DNA from: Patescibacteria group bacterium
GTDB lineage: Bacteria; Patescibacteriota; Patescibacteriia; Magasanikbacterales; GWA2-37-8
Direction: 5' to 3'
Assembly: GCA_004321885.1 (NCBI GenBank)
Contig: SCQK01000014.1
Location: 95,464-159,463 of the forward strand
Length of the DNA stretch: 64,000 nt
The translations under genes were made by a program, and so were the position numbers. Position 1 is the stretch's first letter. Each line of letters begins with the position of its first letter. This document shows, one piece after another, positions 10,322 through 22,052 of this stretch. The notes under the pieces were generated by a model. That model saw only the letters and a list, made by a program, of their open reading frames with translations. It searched no databases and was not told the origin of the DNA.

Positions 10322-10349
10322 TTGACATTTTCGCTATTTTTTTCTATAA
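10322..10349 (+). promoter_or_regulatory. Consensus sigma70-type promoter (TTGACA-17-TATAAT) driving GIY-YIG ORF / tRNA-Asn
   Basis: TTGACAttttcgctatttttttcTATAAT seen directly. Confidence 0.65.
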
Positions 10350-10353
10350 TAGT

Positions 10354-10383
10354 TGTCATTCCGGACTTGATCCGGAATCCAGC
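10354..10383. repeat. Family-B repeat just downstream of promoter 10322
   Basis: TGTCATTCCGGACTTGATCCGGAATCCAGC. Confidence 0.85.
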
Positions 10384-10444
10384 TCCTTTGAAAATAAATT
10401 CCGGGGTAGCGCTCCGCCAGCCGGCGGAGGTAGCGCAGTTGGCT

Positions 10445-10693
10445 GTGTATACTGTTTACGCTATTTACAATCAAAAAAACGATAAAATTTATATTGGACA
10501 AACAAAAGACATGGCCGAACGATTAAGGTTGCATAATGAAAAAATCCTTCTTGGTTATACTTATAGATTTGATGGAAATTGGAAATTAATTTATAGTGTA
10601 CAGATCGAGAATAGACAAAAAGCTTTACAAAGAGAGAGACAACTTAAAAGTTTTAGAGGCAGAGAATTTATAAAACAATTTATTCCGGGGTAG
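10445..10693 (+). CDS. GIY-YIG nuclease-domain protein (stand-alone, YhbQ/UPF0213-like)
   Basis: VYTVYAIYNQKNDKIYIGQTKDMAERLRLHN is a canonical GIY-YIG motif with Arg and downstream Glu (IENRQKA). GTG start at 10445 with GGAGG 14 nt upstream; the ORF track begins at TTG 10322 inside the promoter. Its stop codon lies inside tRNA-Asn. Confidence 0.65.
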   Translation: MYTVYAIYNQKNDKIYIGQTKDMAERLRLHNEKILLGYTYRFDGNWKLIYSVQIENRQKALQRERQLKSFRGREFIKQFIPG

Positions 10694-10755
10694 CGCAGCG
10701 GTAGCGCAGAGGACTGTTAATCCTTTGGTCGTGGGTTCGAATCCCACCCCCGGAG
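10684..10755 (+). tRNA. tRNA-Asn (anticodon GTT)
   Basis: Cloverleaf by hand: acceptor TCCGGGG/CCCCGGA, D-arm GCGC-AGCGGTA-GCGC, anticodon loop CTGTTAA, T-arm GTGGG-TTCGAAT-CCCAC, discriminator G; no encoded CCA. Confidence 0.85.
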
Positions 10756-10761
10756 CAAAAA

Positions 10762-10888
10762 CAAAAATACTGGTAATATCCAGTATTTTTGCTTTTGCTC
10801 GGAATACACGAAAAAATACGAACGGATTTGGGCGAATTTTAGGGCGCGGGCGAAATTCCCTCCCCACACCCCTTCCTTTCGCCCGCGA
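10762..10888. repeat. Left terminal inverted repeat of island
   Basis: Reverse complement of 15960..16086; spurious ORFs 10625..10924(-) and 15902..16105(+) share the peptide GRGVGREFRPRPKIRPNPFV because of it. Confidence 0.85.
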
Positions 10889-11065
10889 AGCGAAACGGGG
10901 GCTCTGGTGGACAAAAACTGCCAAAGAACCCGTAAAAAATGTCGGCCGAACTTTATGTTGGCCAAAAGCAAACTTTTCTCTTTGATATTGAATTACGATT
11001 GTTAAAGTGATATAATCAAGTCAATGAGCGTCCCATTCTTGCTATCTTATGTATACTATCATACT

Positions 11066-11272
11066 ATGGAAGAAAAGAAAACAATCGGCGAAAAAATAAA
11101 AAAATGGAGAGCGAAGAAAGATTTGACACAAGACGCCTTGGCAAAAAAGGCGGATATTCCATATAGCACGATTGCTAAAATTGAATCAGATGTTATTACG
11201 AGGCCAACAATACAGACAGTGCAAAAGCTGGCCGTTGGTTTGGGTATAACACTTGATGAATTATTAAAATAG
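11066..11272 (+). CDS. XRE-family helix-turn-helix transcriptional regulator
   Basis: IKKWRAKKDLTQDALAKKADIPYSTIAKIESD is a Cro/C1-type HTH. Extended -10 promoter (TGaTATAAT) with TTGAAT -35 at about 10989-11017. Confidence 0.8.
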   Translation: MEEKKTIGEKIKKWRAKKDLTQDALAKKADIPYSTIAKIESDVITRPTIQTVQKLAVGLGITLDELLK

Positions 11273-11273
11273 T

Positions 11274-12155
11274 ATGGTTAAAGGTCACAAAGTGAAAAAT
11301 GAAAAAATCGATAAAAAAATAGCTTTTGGTTGGTATGGCGGTAAGTTTAGTCATCTTGACTGGCTTTTGCCGCTGTTGCCGGAAACCGATCATTTTTGTG
11401 AGCCGTTTGGTGGCTCTGCTGCCGTTATCATAAACAGAAATCCTTCTTTAATCGAAACATATAATGATTTAGATGGCGAGGTAGTTAATTTCTTCAGAGT
11501 ATTAAGGGAACATCCTAACGATCTTATAAGACAAATTGGGCTTACTCCATTTTCGAGGGAAGAATTCAAATATGCTATTGAACACGAAGATGATAAAAAT
11601 CTTTCAGATATTGAGAGGGCTAGGTCTTTTTTTATCCGCGCAAGGCAGGTTAGGACTGGACTTGCTCAAAAAGCTACTTCTGGTAGATGGGCAAATTGTA
11701 AATTAACTTCCAGAGCCGGAATGTCAGGTGCGGTCTCGAGGTGGTTGGGAAGTGTTGACGGGCTAACAGAGATTGCGGAAAGGCTTTTACGAATACAAAT
11801 TGAAAATGCTCCTGCAATTGAAGTTGTAAGGCGATATGATAGCCCACAGACCTTATTTTACTGTGATCCTCCGTATACACATGATTCTCGAGGTGATATA
11901 AATGCCTATAAATTTGAAATGGACAGGGATGCGCATGTCGAACTGGCCGAAACACTAAAACAGGTTAAGGGGTTAGTCGCTATATCGGGTTACGACTCTC
12001 CCCTAATGAACGAGCTGTATCAAGGATGGAAAAAAATCGCTGGGCCAGTAAAAAATGCAAATTCTATACAACAACCTAGACAAGAAATTTTATGGGTTAA
12101 TTATAATATTAATGATAAATCTTTATGGAAAAAGCAGCAAAGATCCTTGATATAA
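11274..12155 (+). CDS. Dam-family (D12 class) N6-adenine DNA methyltransferase
   Basis: N-terminal WYGGK...EPFGGSAAV (SAM-binding motif I) and catalytic DPPY (FYCDPPYTHDS). Confidence 0.85.
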   Translation: MVKGHKVKNEKIDKKIAFGWYGGKFSHLDWLLPLLPETDHFCEPFGGSAAVIINRNPSLIETYNDLDGEVVNFFRVLREHPNDLIRQIGLTPFSREEFKYAIEHEDDKNLSDIERARSFFIRARQVRTGLAQKATSGRWANCKLTSRAGMSGAVSRWLGSVDGLTEIAERLLRIQIENAPAIEVVRRYDSPQTLFYCDPPYTHDSRGDINAYKFEMDRDAHVELAETLKQVKGLVAISGYDSPLMNELYQGWKKIAGPVKNANSIQQPRQEILWVNYNINDKSLWKKQQRSLI

Positions 12156-13246
12156 TTTTGAAAAAAACTAATGGGCATCTAGAAAAACCTTTTATAAAAA
12201 ATAGGGAGATTTTGCGGAAAATAGAATTTATTTCTCATAATATTCAAAATCGAGCCGGCGTCCGCCTTATTATGTCTTGCTTACTGGCGAAACTTGACGA
12301 TCCAAAAGTTGATGTAAGAAAACCTTATACGGAGATTGGCAGTCGTGATAGTTTTTCGGGCAGAACATATGACGAGGCCTATGTCGGCAGTTTTATCACT
12401 AAACATCACTTGCCGTGTAATCCAACAACAGCGTTTTTGACGCCAGCTCTACGTAATAGAAATATTGTACTTACGCCAAAAGTAAATTTAGTCGGCAGGC
12501 CACCAGAAATTTATCAATACGTTCTCGACCTCCTAGAATTAGTATTTAAAGGATTTCTTGCCCCAGCCATTCTGCTTGCGGAAATAATGCGACAACTTGT
12601 TCTTTTACGAGATGAAAATCAAAAACGTATAAAATCTTTGTTAAAGAATCTCGGGAAAAATGGTAGTGTGCCTCTTTCGGGTGAAGACATAATAAAACTT
12701 ATTGAGCAACATTTAAATTGCAAAGGAGCCAGCAGACTTCCCGTACTTATCGTGGCCGCTGCTTACAACACTATTGGAAATTTCATCCAAGAAAAAGTAT
12801 TACCTATCTTTTCTCACAATTCTGCAGATAAACAAACTGGTGCGCTCGGCGATATACAAATTACGTTAATTAATGACGAGAATGTAGTAACTAGTTATGA
12901 GATGAAGATGAAGAAGGTCACAAAGGACGACATTGATATCGCTCTGCAAAAAATTTCGGGAGTTAAGTACAAAATAGATAATTATATTTTTATAACGACG
13001 GATATAATAGATGATTCGGTAAAAGAATATGCGAAATCACTTTATGAGCAAACCGGCGGAATAGAGATAGTTGTCTTAGATTGTATTAGTTTTCTTAGGC
13101 ATTTTATTCATTTATTCCACCGCTTCAGATTGCCATATCTTGAAGAGTATCAAAAGTTGGTGATGGGTGAAGCAGACAGCGCGGTCAGTCAGCCCCTTAA
13201 AGAGGCATTTCTTGCTCTTCGACAGGCAACAGAAAGCGCGAATTAA
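12125..13246 (+). CDS. Putative type II restriction endonuclease (PD-(D/E)xK) cognate to the Dam-like MTase
   Basis: Overlaps MTase stop (translational coupling). GD-x17-YEMKMK fits a D...ExK nuclease core. No family recognised by eye; assignment is by context. Confidence 0.45.
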   Translation: MEKAAKILDIILKKTNGHLEKPFIKNREILRKIEFISHNIQNRAGVRLIMSCLLAKLDDPKVDVRKPYTEIGSRDSFSGRTYDEAYVGSFITKHHLPCNPTTAFLTPALRNRNIVLTPKVNLVGRPPEIYQYVLDLLELVFKGFLAPAILLAEIMRQLVLLRDENQKRIKSLLKNLGKNGSVPLSGEDIIKLIEQHLNCKGASRLPVLIVAAAYNTIGNFIQEKVLPIFSHNSADKQTGALGDIQITLINDENVVTSYEMKMKKVTKDDIDIALQKISGVKYKIDNYIFITTDIIDDSVKEYAKSLYEQTGGIEIVVLDCISFLRHFIHLFHRFRLPYLEEYQKLVMGEADSAVSQPLKEAFLALRQATESAN

Positions 13247-13327: not shown

Positions 13328-13984
13328 GTGTTTATCTTTATGGATATTGAAGCCGAAAAAGAACAAATCGTGAAGGCCCAAAGTAATATCAAGGAGTTTG
13401 CGCCTTTATTTGATGAATATTACCCCCAAATACTTAAATATTTAATAGGGCGTATCCGCAGTGTGGAAATTGCCCAGGATATTGCATCTGTTACATTCTT
13501 GAAAGCCTTAGAGAATATAAAAAAATTTAACTGTCGGGGGATTAGCATATCATCGTGGCTGTACCGAATAGCTACGAACGAGGTCACTACATATTTTAGA
13601 AAAAATAAAACCCTTTCACTCGATGAGATAAGGGCATGTGAAAATTTTGATCCGCCCGCTATCGGCAACCCGTACATTGAAATTGTCCAGGCGCAGGAAA
13701 AAATTGAAAATGATAAAAAATTTTTGAATCTACAAAATGAGATTCTAAAATTACATATAAATTATCAAGAAGTCATAATGTTGCGATATTTCGAGAAAAA
13801 ACAAATAAATGAGATAGCAGAAATTTTAAATAAAAGCGAGGGGACGATTAAATCTCTCCTCCATCGAGGTTTGAAAAAATTAAAAAAAAATTTTCAACTA
13901 CACAACAGTGACGCCAGAACGCAACCTTTTCAAAATAAAAACGTTCTAAATATAGAACAGGTACTAGTACCCATAAAATTATGA
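13328..13984 (+). CDS. ECF-subfamily RNA polymerase sigma factor
   Basis: Region 2 (ISSWLYRIATNEV) and region 4 HTH (INEIAEILNKSEGTIKSLLHRGLKKLK). Confidence 0.8.
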   Translation: MFIFMDIEAEKEQIVKAQSNIKEFAPLFDEYYPQILKYLIGRIRSVEIAQDIASVTFLKALENIKKFNCRGISISSWLYRIATNEVTTYFRKNKTLSLDEIRACENFDPPAIGNPYIEIVQAQEKIENDKKFLNLQNEILKLHINYQEVIMLRYFEKKQINEIAEILNKSEGTIKSLLHRGLKKLKKNFQLHNSDARTQPFQNKNVLNIEQVLVPIKL

Positions 13985-14223
13985 ATGACCTACAGGAGTT
14001 AGAAAAAATGTTAGAGGAGATCGAGGTTCCGTCTGTGGACTTAAATATAAATAAGGAGTTGTTGAAGAGTTACCTATTTAGAAATGAGCGGGTTGAATTT
14101 GAGAGCAGCAAACAAGATAACTCCATATTTGCCCCGCAGTTTGAATTTTTACCTTGTCCGTCATTTACGTATGATTATTTAATTAATGATTTTAATTCAA
14201 CTACATATGTCCTTAGTTATTAA
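13981..14223 (+). CDS. Small hypothetical protein (80 aa), start overlaps sigma-factor stop (ATGA); possible anti-sigma/adaptor
   Basis: ATGA overlap with upstream sigma gene and 17-38 nt overlap with downstream hydrolase. No TM segment and no recognisable domain. Confidence 0.4.
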   Translation: MNDLQELEKMLEEIEVPSVDLNINKELLKSYLFRNERVEFESSKQDNSIFAPQFEFLPCPSFTYDYLINDFNSTTYVLSY

Positions 14224-15169
14224 TGTAACCACACCCGAAGGAATTGTGTTAGCAGCTGATAGTCGTCAAAGCTACCGCAACCAAAAAGGCGCAGCCCGTA
14301 TAGGCAGCGATAACGCTTCGAAACTGTTTAAATTAAACGACCGGATAGCTGTTGCAGCTACAGGCATGGCCTTTTTACCTGAAAAAGGAATGCTTAAAAA
14401 TATAAGTAAATTTATAGAACAATTTAAAAAAATTGAAATTGAAAAAATAGAAAATATATCAGTTAAGGAAACGGCAGAAAAAATTCATGAATATTTCAAA
14501 AGTATATACAAAGTAGAAGACCAGATAAGGGCAATTGAGCAGCAAATTACAAATGATATCGCAAAAAACGGGGGTAAAATATTGAGAACAGACGCTAAAA
14601 AAAATATAGTTATTGTAGAGTTTGAAGATGCAAATGGGAAAAAAGGTGTTGCCAACGTAGTTCTGGAGCCCTTGAATTTCATGGTGGCTGGTTTTAATAG
14701 CAATTTCGATTCGCACGAGGTTTACACGTGTAGAATACCGGGGGGGATAGAATTAAAAAGAAATAGTAGCGTGGATAATAAAGAGTATGGCGCCTCGTGG
14801 GAAGGGCAAAATGATGTGGTAGCGCGAATTGTCTTGGGTTTTGATCCTAGGATAGGGAATATAAAATTTGTACAAGAAGCAGCGGAAAAAATTGGGAAGG
14901 ATCAAATTAATGAACAGCTTAGAAATTTAGAATACGCAATACAATGGGGCACCATGACTTTGCAAGATGCTATCGACTTTTGTGTGTTAATTATAAAAAC
15001 AACCTCAGCCATTCAAAGATTTTCGGATGGCATTAAAGCTGATCCTGGTGCAATCCCTGGCGTGGGCGGCTCCATCGATGTGGTGGTCATCAGACCAGAA
15101 GAGGGGTTTAATTGGGTAAGTAAAAAGAAGTTATCTATCAATGAAAATTGTTCAGAAATAAATTTTTAA
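14186..15169 (+). CDS. Proteasome-beta/HslV-like Ntn threonine hydrolase (elongated, 327 aa)
   Basis: After a short propeptide (MILIQLHMSLVINV) the sequence TTPEGIVLAADSRQS...SKLFKLNDRIAVAATGMA matches the proteasome-beta N-terminal nucleophile Thr plus the Lys33 region. C-terminal GVGGSIDVVVIRPEEG matches the beta-subunit SGG...VxVI motif. About 100 aa inserted between. Confidence 0.65.
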   Translation: MILIQLHMSLVINVTTPEGIVLAADSRQSYRNQKGAARIGSDNASKLFKLNDRIAVAATGMAFLPEKGMLKNISKFIEQFKKIEIEKIENISVKETAEKIHEYFKSIYKVEDQIRAIEQQITNDIAKNGGKILRTDAKKNIVIVEFEDANGKKGVANVVLEPLNFMVAGFNSNFDSHEVYTCRIPGGIELKRNSSVDNKEYGASWEGQNDVVARIVLGFDPRIGNIKFVQEAAEKIGKDQINEQLRNLEYAIQWGTMTLQDAIDFCVLIIKTTSAIQRFSDGIKADPGAIPGVGGSIDVVVIRPEEGFNWVSKKKLSINENCSEINF

Positions 15170-15193: not shown

Positions 15194-15838
15194 ATGAAAA
15201 AACCTCTTTATATAATGCTCCATCACTCGGCTGTTTCATACGACAAAAATCCAGATCAATTTGATGCAAATAATAATTACCATAAAGCACAGTGGAATTT
15301 TAAAGGTTCCCTTGGTTTTTATCTTGGTTACAATTACGAAATATCTAAAACCGGCCTGACACGACAAGCCCGAGCAGACGGTGAAGTTACGGCAGCATGC
15401 TATCAAAAAGATATGAACGATGGTAGGTGTATACATATTTGTATGGATGGCCACTTCGATCAAGAAAAACCAACGCCAGAACAAATAGAGGCGTTAAGAA
15501 AATTGCTAAAACAAAAATTCGAGGAGCACAATATCAAAAGAGAGAACTTAATTTTTCATAGGGATTACGCCCCTAAAACCTGTCCGGGGTCTAATTTAGA
15601 CATAAAAAATATTCGCGATCTTGCCACACCGGAAGGCAATGAATTGTACGCAGCCGCATTGACGCTTATGAAAGAGAATAATTCACCAGCTATTTACTTT
15701 TTCGGTTTTGATAATATGTGGCACGGACTTGGGGATATGGATATTTTAAAATCATTAAAAGGAAACTATAATCCAGTAGAAATAATGAAAGTAGAAAATC
15801 TCCCTGATAATATTTCATTTTCAATAGGCAAACAATAA
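15194..15838 (+). CDS. N-acetylmuramoyl-L-alanine amidase (Amidase_2/PGRP fold, zinc-dependent)
   Basis: IMLHHSA ... HICMDGHFD ... HRDYAPKTCPG carries the His/His/Cys zinc ligands of the T7-lysozyme/PGRP family. Confidence 0.75.
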   Translation: MKKPLYIMLHHSAVSYDKNPDQFDANNNYHKAQWNFKGSLGFYLGYNYEISKTGLTRQARADGEVTAACYQKDMNDGRCIHICMDGHFDQEKPTPEQIEALRKLLKQKFEEHNIKRENLIFHRDYAPKTCPGSNLDIKNIRDLATPEGNELYAAALTLMKENNSPAIYFFGFDNMWHGLGDMDILKSLKGNYNPVEIMKVENLPDNISFSIGKQ

Positions 15839-15959: not shown

Positions 15960-16086
15960 CGCGGGCGGAAGGAAGGGGTGTGGGGAGGGAATTCCGCCCG
16001 CGCCCTAAAATTCGCCCAAATCCGTTCGTATCTTTTCATAAGTCCCGAGCAAAAGTAAAAATACTGGTAATATCCAGTATTTTTTG
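15960..16086. repeat. Right terminal inverted repeat of island
   Basis: See left IR. Confidence 0.85.
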
Positions 16087-16890: not shown

Positions 16891-17811
16891 ATGCAAGCCC
16901 AAAGCTATCTGTTAATCGTATTCGCCGGTATTATTATCGGTTTTTTGATATTTGACCTGGGTTTTCTAAATCGTCAAAGCCACAAAATTGAATTCAAGCC
17001 CGCTTTACTTCAGTCCATTTTTTGGATCGCGGTCGCCCTTATTTTCGGGCTTTTGATTTTAAGATTCATGGACCAAACCCTGGCCGCGGAATTTTTCAGC
17101 GCCTATGTCACCGAAAAAATGCTGTCCGTGGACAATCTGTTCGTGATGATGCTCATATTCAGCTATTTCGGTCTGGAAGAAAAGTACCACCACAAGGCGC
17201 TGTTTTGGGGAATAATGGGAGCCATCATTTTTCGCGGCATTTTTATCAGCGCCGGCTCTTTCATCGTCGGCCAGTTTCATTGGGTGCTTTACATTTTTGG
17301 CGCGATTTTAATTTACACGGCCTTCAAAATTTTGAAAGACAAAAAAGAAGAGCATATTGATTTCAGCCGCAACAAAGTTATCAGGCTGGCGCGCAAATAT
17401 CTGCCCTTCACCGCCAGCCATCACGGGGGCAAATTTTTCTTCAGAGAAAAAGGCAAATTTTTCTTCACCTCGCTGTTTTTGGTGGTACTGCTCGTGGAAG
17501 CCACCGACATAATTTTCGCCGTTGATTCCATTCCGGCCGTGTTCGCCATATCGCAAAATTTATTCATCGTGTTCACCTCCAACATTTTCGCCATCATGGG
17601 TTTGCGCGCCCTTTTCTTCCTCATAGAAAACGTCTTGCACCAATTTCACCACCTGCAAAAGGGACTGTCCTTTATTTTATTTTTCATCGGCGCTAAAATG
17701 CTTTCCGGCATTTTCGGTCTGCACATCTCTTCGCTTATCTCTTTTGGCATAATCATGTTAGCCCTCGCTTTATCCATAATTCTCTCGGTTGTGTTCCCGA
17801 AAAAGATTTGA
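16891..17811 (+). CDS. TerC/Alx-family integral membrane protein
   Basis: Multiple TM helices with the TerC signature EKMLSVDNLFVMMLIF and a repeated second half. Confidence 0.8.
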   Translation: MQAQSYLLIVFAGIIIGFLIFDLGFLNRQSHKIEFKPALLQSIFWIAVALIFGLLILRFMDQTLAAEFFSAYVTEKMLSVDNLFVMMLIFSYFGLEEKYHHKALFWGIMGAIIFRGIFISAGSFIVGQFHWVLYIFGAILIYTAFKILKDKKEEHIDFSRNKVIRLARKYLPFTASHHGGKFFFREKGKFFFTSLFLVVLLVEATDIIFAVDSIPAVFAISQNLFIVFTSNIFAIMGLRALFFLIENVLHQFHHLQKGLSFILFFIGAKMLSGIFGLHISSLISFGIIMLALALSIILSVVFPKKI

Positions 17812-19175: not shown

Positions 19176-22052
19176 ATGCCTAAGAGAAAAAAGAGGGATA
19201 GACGCGTAAGGTACGCGTTTTTGGCGATAGTTTTGTGTTTGGCCGCGGGCGGTGCCGGCGCGGCCGTGTATTTAACATCAAAGGCCAGTTCGGCGAATTT
19301 TAGCGCGCAAATTTACGGCGCGGTTTCGCCGCGATTAAACGTTATAGACGTGGATTTTTTGCGCGACAATAATTTGAAGTTCACGCAGGACAAAAAAACC
19401 AATTTCGTGCGCTCGCTTTCGGCCCTGGGCCAGCCCATTCCTTTAAGCAAAGGAAATTTGGTCAGCGACTTGGCGGTCAGCAATCAATTTTTGAAAGACT
19501 ACGCGCGCTTTTTCGGAGTGGGCGACAGCAAACAACTCATACTGCATTCGTCCAAGAAAGACGAGCTGGGGCTAAGTCACATAAAATACCAGCAAAAAAT
19601 CGGCGGGGTGCCGGTGTTTGGCGCACAGATGCTGGTGCACGTAAAAGAGGACCTGTCCGTCAATTCAGCGGCCGGCAAACTATTGGCCAATGTTTCCATC
19701 AATACCAATCCCAAAATCACGGGGCGCGCGGCCGGCGACGCGGTGAAGCGTTCGTGGCAAAAGAGCGACAAGGCGCCCAAAGTTTCGGCGGGCAAGCTGT
19801 ATATTTTCAACAAGAACCTTTTGGACGCTCGGTTTGAAAATAAAAATCATCTAACCTGGGAGATAAAGGCCGTGGACGCGGATTCGGGCTTTTCCGAAAC
19901 CTATTACATAGACGCAACCAGCGGAGCAATTTTGCAGAAAATTTCCAATGTCAAACAGATTAGCCGTCGGATTTTTAATTGCGGCAACAATCGCAACCGT
20001 ACTACCTGCCGAAACATGCTGGGCGCCGCGGCCAGCCGGGCGCAAAACGACCGGGCCGAGGGCTGGGCCGCCGCGGGCGTGGCCGAGGTTGACAACGTCT
20101 ATCAAATGATGAACCAGGCGCATAATTATTTTCAAAACACCTTTGGCATAGACGGCGCCAACGGCCGCGACGGCATTGGCGACAACACCGACGGCCATCC
20201 GCGCACCTCCACCGACGTTTATGCTGATTGGCTTATCCCCGCCAGCTGGGGTTTTAATTGTCCCAATTCTTTCTTTTTCGAAAACAAGCTGATGTTCTGC
20301 AACAACACGGTCAATCTGCCGGTGGTGGGACACGAATACATGCACGGCGTGGCGCACTTCAACGGCCCGCCCCTCACTTACGCCTACGAGTCCGGCGCCA
20401 TTGAAGAGGCCAATGCCGACATCTTTGGCCAGGCCCTGGAAAATGCCGTGACCGGCTCTTCCAGCTGGCGCATCGGCCCCACTGGCGGAAATCTGTGGCG
20501 CAATATCGTCAATCCCGCTTCGCTCAATGACCCGGACCGGTTTTACAGCAACAATTTTTATTGCGGAGATAATGACGAGGGCGGGGTGCACAACAATTCC
20601 AATGTCATTTCACACGCCGCGTATTTGCTTGCCACCGGCGGCAGTTTCAACGGCTGTTCCATAGACAGCATCGGCCAAAACAGAATGGAAAGAATTTTCT
20701 ACCGCGCCCTGACAGTTTACCTCACGGCCAGTTCGGATTTCAATGATTTGTACGACGCGCTGGACAATGCCTGCGGCGACCTGTATTCCGACGCGATTTG
20801 CGCGCAAGTGCGCCGCGCCTTGCAGGCCGCGGAAATAGACCAGCCCGGGCGATGCAGCGGCACAGCGGCCGCGCCCAAGCCAACCTGTTTTCCGCCGTAT
20901 ATTCTTTCGGTGTCGGCGAATGCCGGGCATTATCGGGCCAATCAAAGTATTACATTGAGGTTTAAGTTTTCCAAGCCCGTGCGCACGGCCGGCGCCGTGG
21001 ATGTGTTCGCGGTCTTAAACGGCCGCACGGCCGAAAAAATTTGCTCCCTTGATTTGAGCTCGCGCGCCGACGACGTGTCATGCTCGTTTAAGGTAAATGA
21101 CGGCGACAGCGGCCGTCTGCGCGTGGACAGAATTGAGTGGGATGTCAAGAGGCCGATTTTGGACGCTGATTCAAGCGAGCTTACCGATATGGTGCCGGCC
21201 GAGCAGTTTCCCAAGGGCGACGTGATTATAGACACCGCCAAGCCAACCGGAAGCGTTACCATCAATAGCGGGGCTAAAACCACGGCCAGCCATATAGTGG
21301 AGCTGGCGCTAAGTTCAAACGACGACAAAGCCGGGTTGCTATACCGCGTTTCCAACAACGGCGTCAGTTACAGCCGTTGGGATGATTTTGCGGCAACGAC
21401 GTCGTGGAATTTGTACAACGCGGACGCGGGCGGCGGGGTGTTTCCCACCACCAACAGTGGATATCCGCGCACGGTTTATGTTCAGTTCAAAGACCAGGCC
21501 GGCAATGTTTCCGACACGTATTCGGCCAATATCACCTTTAGCCGGCTGACGATTTTAATAGAAGAGCCGGCGCAACTTGCGGTTCCAACTTCATCACAGC
21601 CGAATGGCGCGAATCTCCTACTCAATATTCCCCCCAGCGCCCTGACCATCCCCGGCGTCAATGTTACAGTTACGCAGACAAGCGCGGTGGTTCTGCCGCA
21701 GATTTCCACGACCACTGTCAATTTGAATCCGGCGATTTCTTCTTCGCTTATTGATGTTGTCAGTGTTCCGGATTTCACGATTTCCGTAAAGCAGGGCGGG
21801 CTGACAACATATTTGAGCGGCGCCATAAATTATTGGGGCAAGGGGGCAAAATGCGAGGGCCCGCGAACTTATGACGCGGTAGTAGCGAACTGGGGCGATG
21901 GCGCATCAGCCAAGCCCGCGCGCAAGGATAAAACATTCTATGCTTCGCATACTTACGCCAAGACCTTTGGCTCGTACAAGATTTTGGTAAAGGTTTACAA
22001 CAGTTGCGGTGGCAGCGCGAGCAAATCTTTGTACGTAAAGCCGCAGATATAA
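19176..22052 (+). CDS. Large membrane-anchored thermolysin-like (M4) zinc metallopeptidase with long C-terminal beta-rich extension
   Basis: HEXXH as VVGHEYMHGV; downstream EGGVHNNSNVISHAAYLL matches the thermolysin GGVHxNSGIxNKAAY active-site His region. N-terminal TM; 958 aa. Confidence 0.7.
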   Translation: MPKRKKRDRRVRYAFLAIVLCLAAGGAGAAVYLTSKASSANFSAQIYGAVSPRLNVIDVDFLRDNNLKFTQDKKTNFVRSLSALGQPIPLSKGNLVSDLAVSNQFLKDYARFFGVGDSKQLILHSSKKDELGLSHIKYQQKIGGVPVFGAQMLVHVKEDLSVNSAAGKLLANVSINTNPKITGRAAGDAVKRSWQKSDKAPKVSAGKLYIFNKNLLDARFENKNHLTWEIKAVDADSGFSETYYIDATSGAILQKISNVKQISRRIFNCGNNRNRTTCRNMLGAAASRAQNDRAEGWAAAGVAEVDNVYQMMNQAHNYFQNTFGIDGANGRDGIGDNTDGHPRTSTDVYADWLIPASWGFNCPNSFFFENKLMFCNNTVNLPVVGHEYMHGVAHFNGPPLTYAYESGAIEEANADIFGQALENAVTGSSSWRIGPTGGNLWRNIVNPASLNDPDRFYSNNFYCGDNDEGGVHNNSNVISHAAYLLATGGSFNGCSIDSIGQNRMERIFYRALTVYLTASSDFNDLYDALDNACGDLYSDAICAQVRRALQAAEIDQPGRCSGTAAAPKPTCFPPYILSVSANAGHYRANQSITLRFKFSKPVRTAGAVDVFAVLNGRTAEKICSLDLSSRADDVSCSFKVNDGDSGRLRVDRIEWDVKRPILDADSSELTDMVPAEQFPKGDVIIDTAKPTGSVTINSGAKTTASHIVELALSSNDDKAGLLYRVSNNGVSYSRWDDFAATTSWNLYNADAGGGVFPTTNSGYPRTVYVQFKDQAGNVSDTYSANITFSRLTILIEEPAQLAVPTSSQPNGANLLLNIPPSALTIPGVNVTVTQTSAVVLPQISTTTVNLNPAISSSLIDVVSVPDFTISVKQGGLTTYLSGAINYWGKGAKCEGPRTYDAVVANWGDGASAKPARKDKTFYASHTYAKTFGSYKILVKVYNSCGGSASKSLYVKPQI

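Follow-up and report, generated by a model that had tools for sequence, protein, structure and literature searches.

A predicted stand-alone proteasome-like hydrolase with an N-terminal serine in a genomic island of a Patescibacteria group bacterium

We analysed a 64,000-nucleotide stretch of DNA from a Patescibacteria group bacterium (contig SCQK01000014.1, hereafter the window) and followed up one gene in it, which encodes a proteasome-beta/HslV-like N-terminal nucleophile (Ntn) hydrolase. We read the protein as a stand-alone enzyme of the PMI type (proteasome homologue with multiple insertions), one of the kinds of proteasome homologue among the 22 new clusters described by Fuchs, Alva and Lupas (Bioinformatics 2021, PMC8665760). 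In this reading the serine directly after the initiator methionine is the nucleophile, two inserts interrupt the proteasome core and there is no propeptide. We give it a probability of about 0.62. The gene is genuine and stands well above chance; its elongation, its inserts and its stand-alone status had been on record since the 2021 catalogue.

The gene lies in an open reading frame (ORF) that spans nucleotides 14186..15169 (+) and encodes 327 aa when counted from the first ATG. An earlier note, made from the DNA letters, had given this extent and had singled out the strings MILIQLHMSLVINVTTPEGIVLAADSRQSY, SKLFKLNDRIAVAATGMA and GVGGSIDVVVIRPEEG, all of which are present in the ORF. It had also taken the N-terminal residues for a propeptide removed by cleavage between VINV and TT, and this part did not hold. 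A search for homologues among 5.8 billion proteins yielded 1125 relatives, of which the closest 120 were inspected. These share 58-100% identity with the window protein and are 314-342 aa long, and every one of them has the N-terminus MSL(A/V/I/G)(I/L/V)N..., which corresponds to Met8 of the window ORF at nucleotide 14207. The gene call of one homologue (P0008) was extended upstream, yet the same MS start is found internally. The leader MILIQLH was missing from all homologues, including the three closest (72-74% identical), whose ORFs open at MSL; judged from this comparison, it is probably not translated. The GenBank protein TAN32715.1 (P0001), labelled 'hypothetical protein EPN28_04335, Patescibacteria group bacterium', is likewise the 320-aa form. 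A GGAG-type Shine-Dalgarno sequence was observed 6-9 nt ahead of the ATG of the MS start in the Methanobacterium and Atribacterota copies. The common MSL start and the Shine-Dalgarno sequence in front of it place the gene start at 14207 and give a protein without propeptide. The TT of the supposed cleavage site falls at positions 7-8 of this protein and varies among homologues (TA, AT or TI).

The Pfam Proteasome model, PF00227, matched with 25.2 bits against a gathering cut-off of 22.4 and covered aa 13-62 of the 327-aa ORF only. The NCBIfam model of archaeal beta subunits, TIGR03634, scored 24.8 bits against a cut-off of 224, which marks the protein as a distant relative and not as an archaeal beta orthologue. 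A search of the PDB with the single sequence gave alpha subunits as best matches at a non-significant E of 0.07, and a profile of 27 close homologues brought no improvement. Significance was reached only with alignment A2, a profile built from 83 diverse relatives, which matched the mature Thermoplasma proteasome beta subunit at E 1e-6, with profile position 3 facing position 2 of the mature chain. Comparison by hhalign of A2 with a mature Thermoplasma beta sequence whose first 90 residues agree with the hmmsearch alignment gave a probability of 97.1% and an E of 6.5e-11 over 189 aligned columns. In the numbering of the 320-aa protein (Met = 1), S2 was paired with Thr1, D18 with Glu17, K39 with Lys33 and G53 with Gly47. 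It is therefore Ser2 that holds the register of Thr1, and the TT which the earlier note had chosen for the nucleophile lies in the turn between strands S1 and S2. The rest of that assignment was borne out. The PF00227 match and the profile and fold matches to 20S subunits place the protein in the proteasome-beta/HslV-like family, and the predicted catalytic Asp and Lys are present as D18 and K39, each at least 97% conserved in 75 diverse relatives. The conserved C-terminal strand is found as GG-x-I-D-V. No profile search returned a non-Ntn family as top match, and the catalytic residues were not lost.

The position of the nucleophile was also conserved in the wider family, of which 1411 members were found at E <= 0.001 among 1.84 billion cluster representatives. 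Among the 117 listed representatives with a locatable A-D-S-R motif, 115 have a serine (45) or threonine (70) exactly 16 residues ahead of the Asp. This residue directly follows the initiator Met in 88 representatives, an extension ending in Gly (Gly before Thr, as at the classical autoprocessing site) in about 11 and an AxA-type signal-peptide site in about 10. Three distinct routes thus bring the same residue to the mature N-terminus, which is strong comparative evidence for Ntn chemistry. Within the tight subfamily, Ser occupies the nucleophile position in 91 of 92 loci (the window plus 91 fetched loci, a few being duplicate records), and one Methanobacterium copy has Thr.

A first AlphaFold2 model, built from the 27 close sequences, had a poor core (predicted local distance difference test, pLDDT, 57) and was superseded by a model from the 83 diverse sequences, with a pLDDT of 95.5 and a predicted template-modelling score (pTM) of 0.91. 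The four-layer alpha-beta-beta-alpha fold with the core strands and helices H1-H4 is present in this model. Structure comparison gave the highest score to immunoproteasome beta5i (20.3; 182 residues, 2.4 A), followed by designed Anbu (19.9), HslV (15.3), BPH (14.3) and Connectase (13.7), with other Ntn hydrolases below 12. The top Foldseek matches in the PDB were exclusively 20S subunits. In a fold search of BFVD, the nearest match was a single phage protein named 'proteasome beta type-2' (E 2.5e-9).

Relative to a beta subunit, the window protein carries about 115 extra residues, which secondary structure and hhalign gaps assign to two inserts and lengthened loops. The earlier note had described an insertion of about 100 aa between the two conserved blocks; the elongation was confirmed, but it is not one block, as core strands and H3 lie between the two inserts. 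Insert 1 is the least conserved region (mean 0.66 in 191 distinct subfamily sequences) and is partly lost in many members of the wider family that are 260-280 aa long. By contrast, the last 15 residues of insert 2 (LRNLEYAIQWGTM) are almost invariant, with a conservation of 0.90 for aa 237-251, and this end, H4 and the SDG...PGVGG loop together range from 0.88 to 0.93 in the same 191 sequences. The loop ahead of the GG strand is 11 residues longer and the S2-S3 loop 5 residues longer than in the beta subunit. The C-terminal tail is short, the modelled C-terminus consisting of two strands and then coil.

In the mechanism that we propose, methionine aminopeptidase would remove Met1, as in HslV, and leave Ser1 with a free alpha-amine; Ser is a favourable second residue for this enzyme. 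The O-gamma of Ser1 would attack the peptide bond, with Lys33 and Asp17 as proton relay and Gly47 as oxyanion hole. A canonical stacked double ring is improbable for the window protein, because the inserts are at the sites of the pore loop and of ring-ring contact. The enzyme would probably act by limited proteolysis on exposed or unstructured stretches of polypeptide, with no need of an ATPase. In the window its gene is the last of three in a rare cassette, acquired horizontally and made up of an extracytoplasmic function (ECF) sigma factor, an 80-aa ORF and the protease, and lying in an island, so that expression is probably tied to the co-encoded sigma factor. By analogy, a general or limited-proteolysis peptidase is the most likely role. 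We favour it since a partner gene is absent or different in most lineages and since Rrp, a proteasome-like protease of Streptococcus pneumoniae and the sole analogue to have been characterised, behaves in this way.

Several observations weigh against a hydrolase of the PMI type. The hhalign columns of proteasome Ser129, Asp166 and Ser169 hold Y194, F272 and V286, so that these supporting residues have no clear equivalents; D274 lies two residues off the Asp166 column, and S197 is also near the columns of the supporting residues. Membership of PMI-3, the cluster that fits best, is based on matching descriptions. Finally, Huber et al. in 2016 reportedly found that Ser in place of Thr reduces the hydrolytic efficiency of the yeast proteasome. 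If Ser is hydrolytically less efficient, a non-hydrolytic reaction such as transpeptidation is possible.

The full beta core, including the ring-contact helices H1-H4, would also suit a self-compartmentalising ring protease, BPH-like or resembling an uncapped 20S particle, that serves general quality control and whose inserts cap the ring. The housekeeping-type neighbourhoods of the gene in Methanobacterium and in many Candidate Phyla Radiation (CPR) genomes are consistent with such a role, and Fuchs et al. allow that PMI inserts could face outward and form a regulatory cap (PMC8665760). The same authors expect PMI inserts to impede ring and double-ring assembly (PMC8665760), and in the window protein one insert sits at the pore loop and the other at the ring-ring interface formed by H3/H4. 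We consider a ring unlikely, though the foremost of the alternatives.

The distribution of the subfamily was examined by a scan of one genome per species, which found 160 loci; taxonomy was taken from the best 80. These best 80 of 160 are 50-74% identical to the window protein and come from CPR lineages, Atribacterota, Omnitrophota, a few metagenome-assembled genomes labelled Gammaproteobacteria and about 30 genomes of Methanobacterium, one of them the complete chromosome of M. ferruginis NBRC 105197 (L087). The Methanobacterium (L040, L051, L056-L091) and Atribacterota (L028-L062) copies are 53-60% identical. An identity of 53-74% over CPR, Atribacterota and Methanobacterium is unusually high, and it points to transfer between bacteria and archaea under strong constraint. 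The labels Heimdallarchaeota (L022) and Korarchaeota (P0069) each belong to one short contig, which may be mis-binned. Separately, a number of distant relatives have signal peptides (AxA before T) or long extensions ending in Gly before Thr (P0161, P0165, P0171-P0173, P0175, P0195, P0196, P0203, P0212, P0221, P0226, P0228, P0230, P0236, P0248-P0250, P0257, P0259 and P0270), so that bacteria do have secreted and propeptide-bearing proteasome-like hydrolases.

The gene neighbourhoods differ between these lineages. In the window, the 80-aa ORF overlaps both the sigma gene and the protease gene, a coupling that the earlier note had seen, and with the corrected start at 14207 the overlap with the protease gene is 17 nt. 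The order sigma factor, 80-aa ORF, protease and the 17-nt overlap recur in the three closest relatives (L005/L013 Magasanikbacteria, L012 and L014; 72-74% identity), in each of which a serine recombinase is encoded upstream of the cassette. The 80-aa ORF family has only four members in 5.8 billion proteins. The four copies are 38-45% identical and each lies directly upstream of a protease gene of the window clade. No recognisable anti-sigma domain was found in the ORF with Pfam or NCBIfam; its product is possibly an anti-sigma factor or a substrate of the protease.

Eight CPR or Eisenbacteria loci encode instead a LexA_DNA_bind winged-helix protein that lacks the S24 peptidase domain and whose gene ends at -17 to +4 nt relative to the start of the protease gene, and two loci (L010/L011) have an ECF sigma gene downstream of the protease. 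A membrane-anchored tetratricopeptide repeat (TPR) protein ends 27-28 nt upstream in ten Atribacterota loci, other Atribacterota have four membrane or redox genes, and Methanobacterium has DNA glycosylase genes at gaps of 50-1200 nt. Several CPR loci have no partner. The short winged-helix partners (L043 3417-4004, L047, L065, L079, L032 3625-3999 and L092-L098) have in common the motif IKTDGTN(L/I)xN(D/F)L, located between the LexA-type DNA-binding domain and a hydrophobic tail; the L032 partner falls outside the LexA-type cluster, and the scan for that domain did not include it. All seven full-length metagenomic relatives of the winged-helix partner are directly followed by a protease gene, compared with none of the nine relatives that have the DNA-binding domain alone. 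The motif may be a cleavage or recognition site.

No one partner is conserved over all lineages, and the upstream proteins of different lineages lack significant similarity to each other. There is thus no universal partner, yet a transcription regulator is repeatedly coupled to the protease in CPR. The 80-aa ORF was compared with the long forms of the winged-helix partner, of which it might be a truncated version, and only 34 aa matched weakly (E 0.06-0.24, the database being tiny), in an AT-rich tail that is similar at the nucleotide level and lies just before the ATG. In a separate observation, the loci with translationally coupled partners (L002, L005, L012, L014, L021, L033 and the window at 14170-14206) had no Shine-Dalgarno sequence and shared an AT-rich stretch (..TTAATTAATAATAATTTTAAYTC..) right before the protease ATG, though their upstream proteins differ. 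Conservation of an initiation region could explain this stretch, as could a remnant of a 3' gene end that these loci share.

The pairings with regulators could mean that the enzyme is a regulator-processing protease, which cuts the protein encoded upstream and so switches a transcription programme, similar to ImmA/ImmR or to a trans-acting LexA protease. Its target would be the 80-aa ORF product as an anti-sigma factor in the window, and in other CPR the winged-helix protein of LexA type, whether membrane-anchored or not. The order of the three cassette genes with overlaps of 4 and 17 nt in 4 of 4 known copies, an 80-aa family that occurs nowhere else, the close spacing of the S24-less LexA_DNA_bind proteins in eight genome loci, the IKTDGTN motif of the short forms, the adjacency in all seven metagenomic relatives and the second, different sigma arrangement in L010/L011 all speak for it. 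However, about 25 Methanobacterium loci have no coupled regulator, Atribacterota have TPR or membrane proteins instead, and some CPR loci are partnerless. Partners share no domain or motif across lineages, pair conservation may largely reflect shared descent within one lineage, and the 80-aa ORF lacks a recognisable anti-sigma domain. The support for such a role is real but bound to certain lineages, and on balance the role is doubtful. Slightly more doubtful again is its specific form, in which the PMI-3 protease acts as a trans-acting switch that destroys the 80-aa protein, a soluble anti-sigma factor, and frees the ECF sigma factor, and elsewhere cuts winged-helix proteins at or near IKTDGTN and so frees them from a membrane anchor or a C-terminal domain.

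Ser1 is a poorer hydrolytic nucleophile, the family is present in Methanobacterium, and its very high conservation suggests a specific substrate. These points, and inserts at ring-contact sites that make a monomer conceivable, would be in keeping with a sequence-specific transpeptidase or ligase like Connectase, a proteasome homologue that acts as a ligase and is probably monomeric (PMC7980362). The window protein keeps H1/H2, has just 5 extra residues at the Connectase insert site and does not match DUF2121, and we regard a ligase as quite improbable. Least probable by far is a Thr1 beta-type precursor whose 14-residue propeptide (MILIQLHMSLVINV) is autocatalytically removed to expose the Thr of TT: TT does lie six residues ahead of EG-IVLAAD and some distant relatives have propeptides with Gly before Thr, but homologues open at MSL without a leader, the variable TT has no Gly-1 ahead of it, the catalytic Asp would fall at residue 11 instead of 17, and the alignment, with Ser2 in the Thr1 register and TT at positions 7-8, ruled this reading out.

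As the earlier note had supposed, the protease gene lies in an island, a segment of 5.07 kb at 37.2% GC in surroundings of 50% GC, flanked on both sides by the arms of a 125-nt inverted repeat (Table 1). A 41-nt direct repeat (10750-10790 and 16044-16084) overlaps the 3' end of the tRNA-Asn gene and is formed by the hairpin end of the inverted repeat. The genes of the island all run on the + strand and follow each other closely, 81 nt separating the SacI-like endonuclease gene from the ECF sigma gene, and no integrase or transposase was found inside the island. The amidase gene was beside the protease gene in none of the related loci. Promoter and terminator scans of the window remained at chance level overall. 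The sole notable promoter-like site, TTGAAT-17-TATAAT at 10988-11016, precedes the first gene of the island, and no terminator-like site was found between the sigma gene and the amidase gene. None of the anti-phage defence models of PADLOC matched the protease, the 80-aa ORF, the amidase or the endonuclease. The PHROG matches of the protease were short and unconvincing, and tblastn of the protease against 50,697 phage records returned nothing.

Table 1. Positions in the window of the protease gene, its predicted catalytic residues and inserts, and the surrounding island
Feature	Position	Strand	Remarks
Proteasome-like Ser1 Ntn hydrolase, predicted coding sequence	14207..15169	+	320 aa plus stop; identical to GenBank TAN32715.1
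In-frame 7-codon leader MILIQLH	14186..14206	+	earlier counted into the propeptide; without counterpart in homologues
Ser1, predicted N-terminal nucleophile	14210..14212	+	codon TCC; aligns with Thr1 (hhalign, hmmsearch)
Asp17 equivalent, D of LAADSR	14258..14260	+	codon GAT; aligns with Glu17; D/E in 74/75 diverse relatives
Lys33 equivalent, K of SDNASKLF, residue 39	14321..14323	+	codon AAA; K in 73/75 diverse relatives
Gly47 equivalent (oxyanion hole), residue 53	14363..14365	+	codon GGC; G in 74/75 diverse relatives
Insert 1, aa 103-152: extra (third) helix and three-stranded beta meander after H1/H2, 'pore loop' site	14513..14662	+	AlphaFold2 model; no Thermoplasma beta counterpart
Insert 2, aa 214-250: short helices between H3 and H4	14846..14956	+	model, hhalign gap
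Lengthened loop SDG...PGVGGSI between H4 and the last strands	15023..15076	+	GG aligns with proteasome Gly170-Gly171
tRNA-Asn	10684-10756		island begins directly 3'
Left arm of 125-nt inverted repeat	10763..10887	.	90% complementary to right arm; two copies only in window
Right arm of 125-nt inverted repeat	15960..16084	.	last 41 nt are a direct repeat of 10750-10790
Restriction-modification module: HTH_3 (C-protein-like) regulator, D12-class N6-adenine methyltransferase, SacI-like endonuclease	11024..13246	+	Pfam; genes overlap or abut
ECF-type sigma-70 factor, cassette gene 1	13328..13984	+	Pfam Sigma70_r2, Sigma70_r4_2; TIGR02937 86 bits, over cut-off
80-aa ORF, cassette gene 2	13981..14223	+	overlaps sigma gene by 4 nt (ATGA) and protease gene by 17 nt
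N-acetylmuramoyl-L-alanine amidase (Amidase_2, endolysin-like)	15194..15838	+	Pfam 2e-16; PHROG endolysin/amidase; 24 nt past protease

Three further features of the surroundings were recorded. A gene for a TerC-family membrane protein is near the cassette both in the window (16891-17811, +, beyond the right repeat) and in the Magasanikbacteria locus L005 (7345-8265, -), which is either a shared insertion neighbourhood or a coincidence. Just upstream of tRNA-Asn, in or ahead of a GIY-YIG nuclease ORF (10322-10693), a 29-nt stretch at 10393-10421 is 79% identical to the 5' end of the tRNA-Asn region (10677-10705). Further downstream, a 958-aa ORF at 19176-22052 has an N-terminal hydrophobic segment and the motif HEYMHGV (thermolysin-type HExxH) and probably encodes a secreted metalloprotease.

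For annotation, the lesson is that the start is Met8 of the longer ORF and that the product should be named a proteasome-like Ser-Ntn hydrolase rather than a beta-subunit precursor. Proteasome homologues outside 20S, HslV, Anbu, BPH and Connectase have so far been listed by sequence only. Why proteasomes insist on threonine is an old question, for which the subfamily would supply an enzyme with a natural Ser1, and its gene pairs give concrete candidate substrates, namely the sigma factor with the 80-aa ORF product and the IKTDGTN winged-helix proteins. The Ser1 nucleophile, the spread between domains of life and the pairing with regulators make it a reasonable experimental target, though no surprise for the specialist. 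If the switch-protease reading were true, it would be the first dedicated signalling protease of the proteasome family and the first function of any PMI protein.

Among the known systems, the 20S beta subunits (PF00227, MEROPS T1) differ from the window protein, which has Ser for Thr, no propeptide, no Gly-1, about 115 extra residues and no clear Ser129, Asp166 or Ser169. No alpha subunit or ATPase is encoded nearby, and neither an alpha subunit nor an AAA+ gene was found near the protease gene in the 91 loci. HslV is alike in being the product of a stand-alone bacterial gene whose nucleophile is exposed by mere removal of the initiator Met; it is about 175 aa long without inserts, has Thr1 and an adjacent hslU, and the window protein does not fit it. 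Anbu has a long C-terminal H5 coiled-coil helix, which is absent from the model of the window protein. Anbu operons contain ATP-grasp, alpha-E and transglutaminase-like genes, and none of these was present at the loci compared.

Connectase (DUF2121; Methanocaldococcus/Methanosarcina) resembles the window protein as a divergent proteasome homologue with specificity-shaping inserts that occurs in methanogens. It has lost H1/H2 and carries a signature two-helix insert between S3 and S4 (PMC8665760), whereas the window protein retains H1/H2 and has only the 5 extra residues at the S3/S4 site. The closest precedent from experiment is Rrp (SP_1145) of S. pneumoniae TIGR4, a proteasome/Anbu-like Ntn protease with extra domains, encoded on a horizontally acquired element; in vitro it is a loose endopeptidase that trims the N-terminal extension of bL27 rather unspecifically (bioRxiv 10.64898/2026.08.10.744006). 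The likeness, by description and at the superfamily level, is that of a proteasome-like protease with extra domains borne on a mobile element; no bL27 gene is present in the window.

The PMI homologues match best. All of the clusters described retain Thr1/Ser1, Asp17, Lys33 and Gly47, propeptides are confined to beta subunits and HslV, and inserts between H3 and H4 are found in PMI-2 to PMI-6 (PMC8665760). The elongated architecture is thus not new, since the insert sites were already described for PMI homologues. PMI-3 and PMI-4 share with the window protein the proteasome-like core with these four residues, a long insert after H1/H2 together with one between H3 and H4, and the lack of a propeptide and of an AAA+ partner. 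PMI-3 has OGZ26396.1 as its representative and was reported from 'other bacteria', Euryarchaeota and a few Proteobacteria, with 28 sequences in nr90 reduced to 11 in nr70 (PMC8665760). This taxon spread and sequence tightness fit the CPR, Atribacterota and Methanobacterium range of the subfamily. OGZ26396.1 is a CPR protein, and its accession block is that of the 2016 CPR genomes. We are fairly confident of the assignment of the window protein to PMI-3, as the published description matches it. In the literature searched, we found no later paper characterising a PMI protein. No genomic context signal, AAA+ partner or function was reported for the PMI clusters (PMC8665760), whereas in the window subfamily the gene is coupled, depending on the lineage, to transcription regulators or to a TPR protein.

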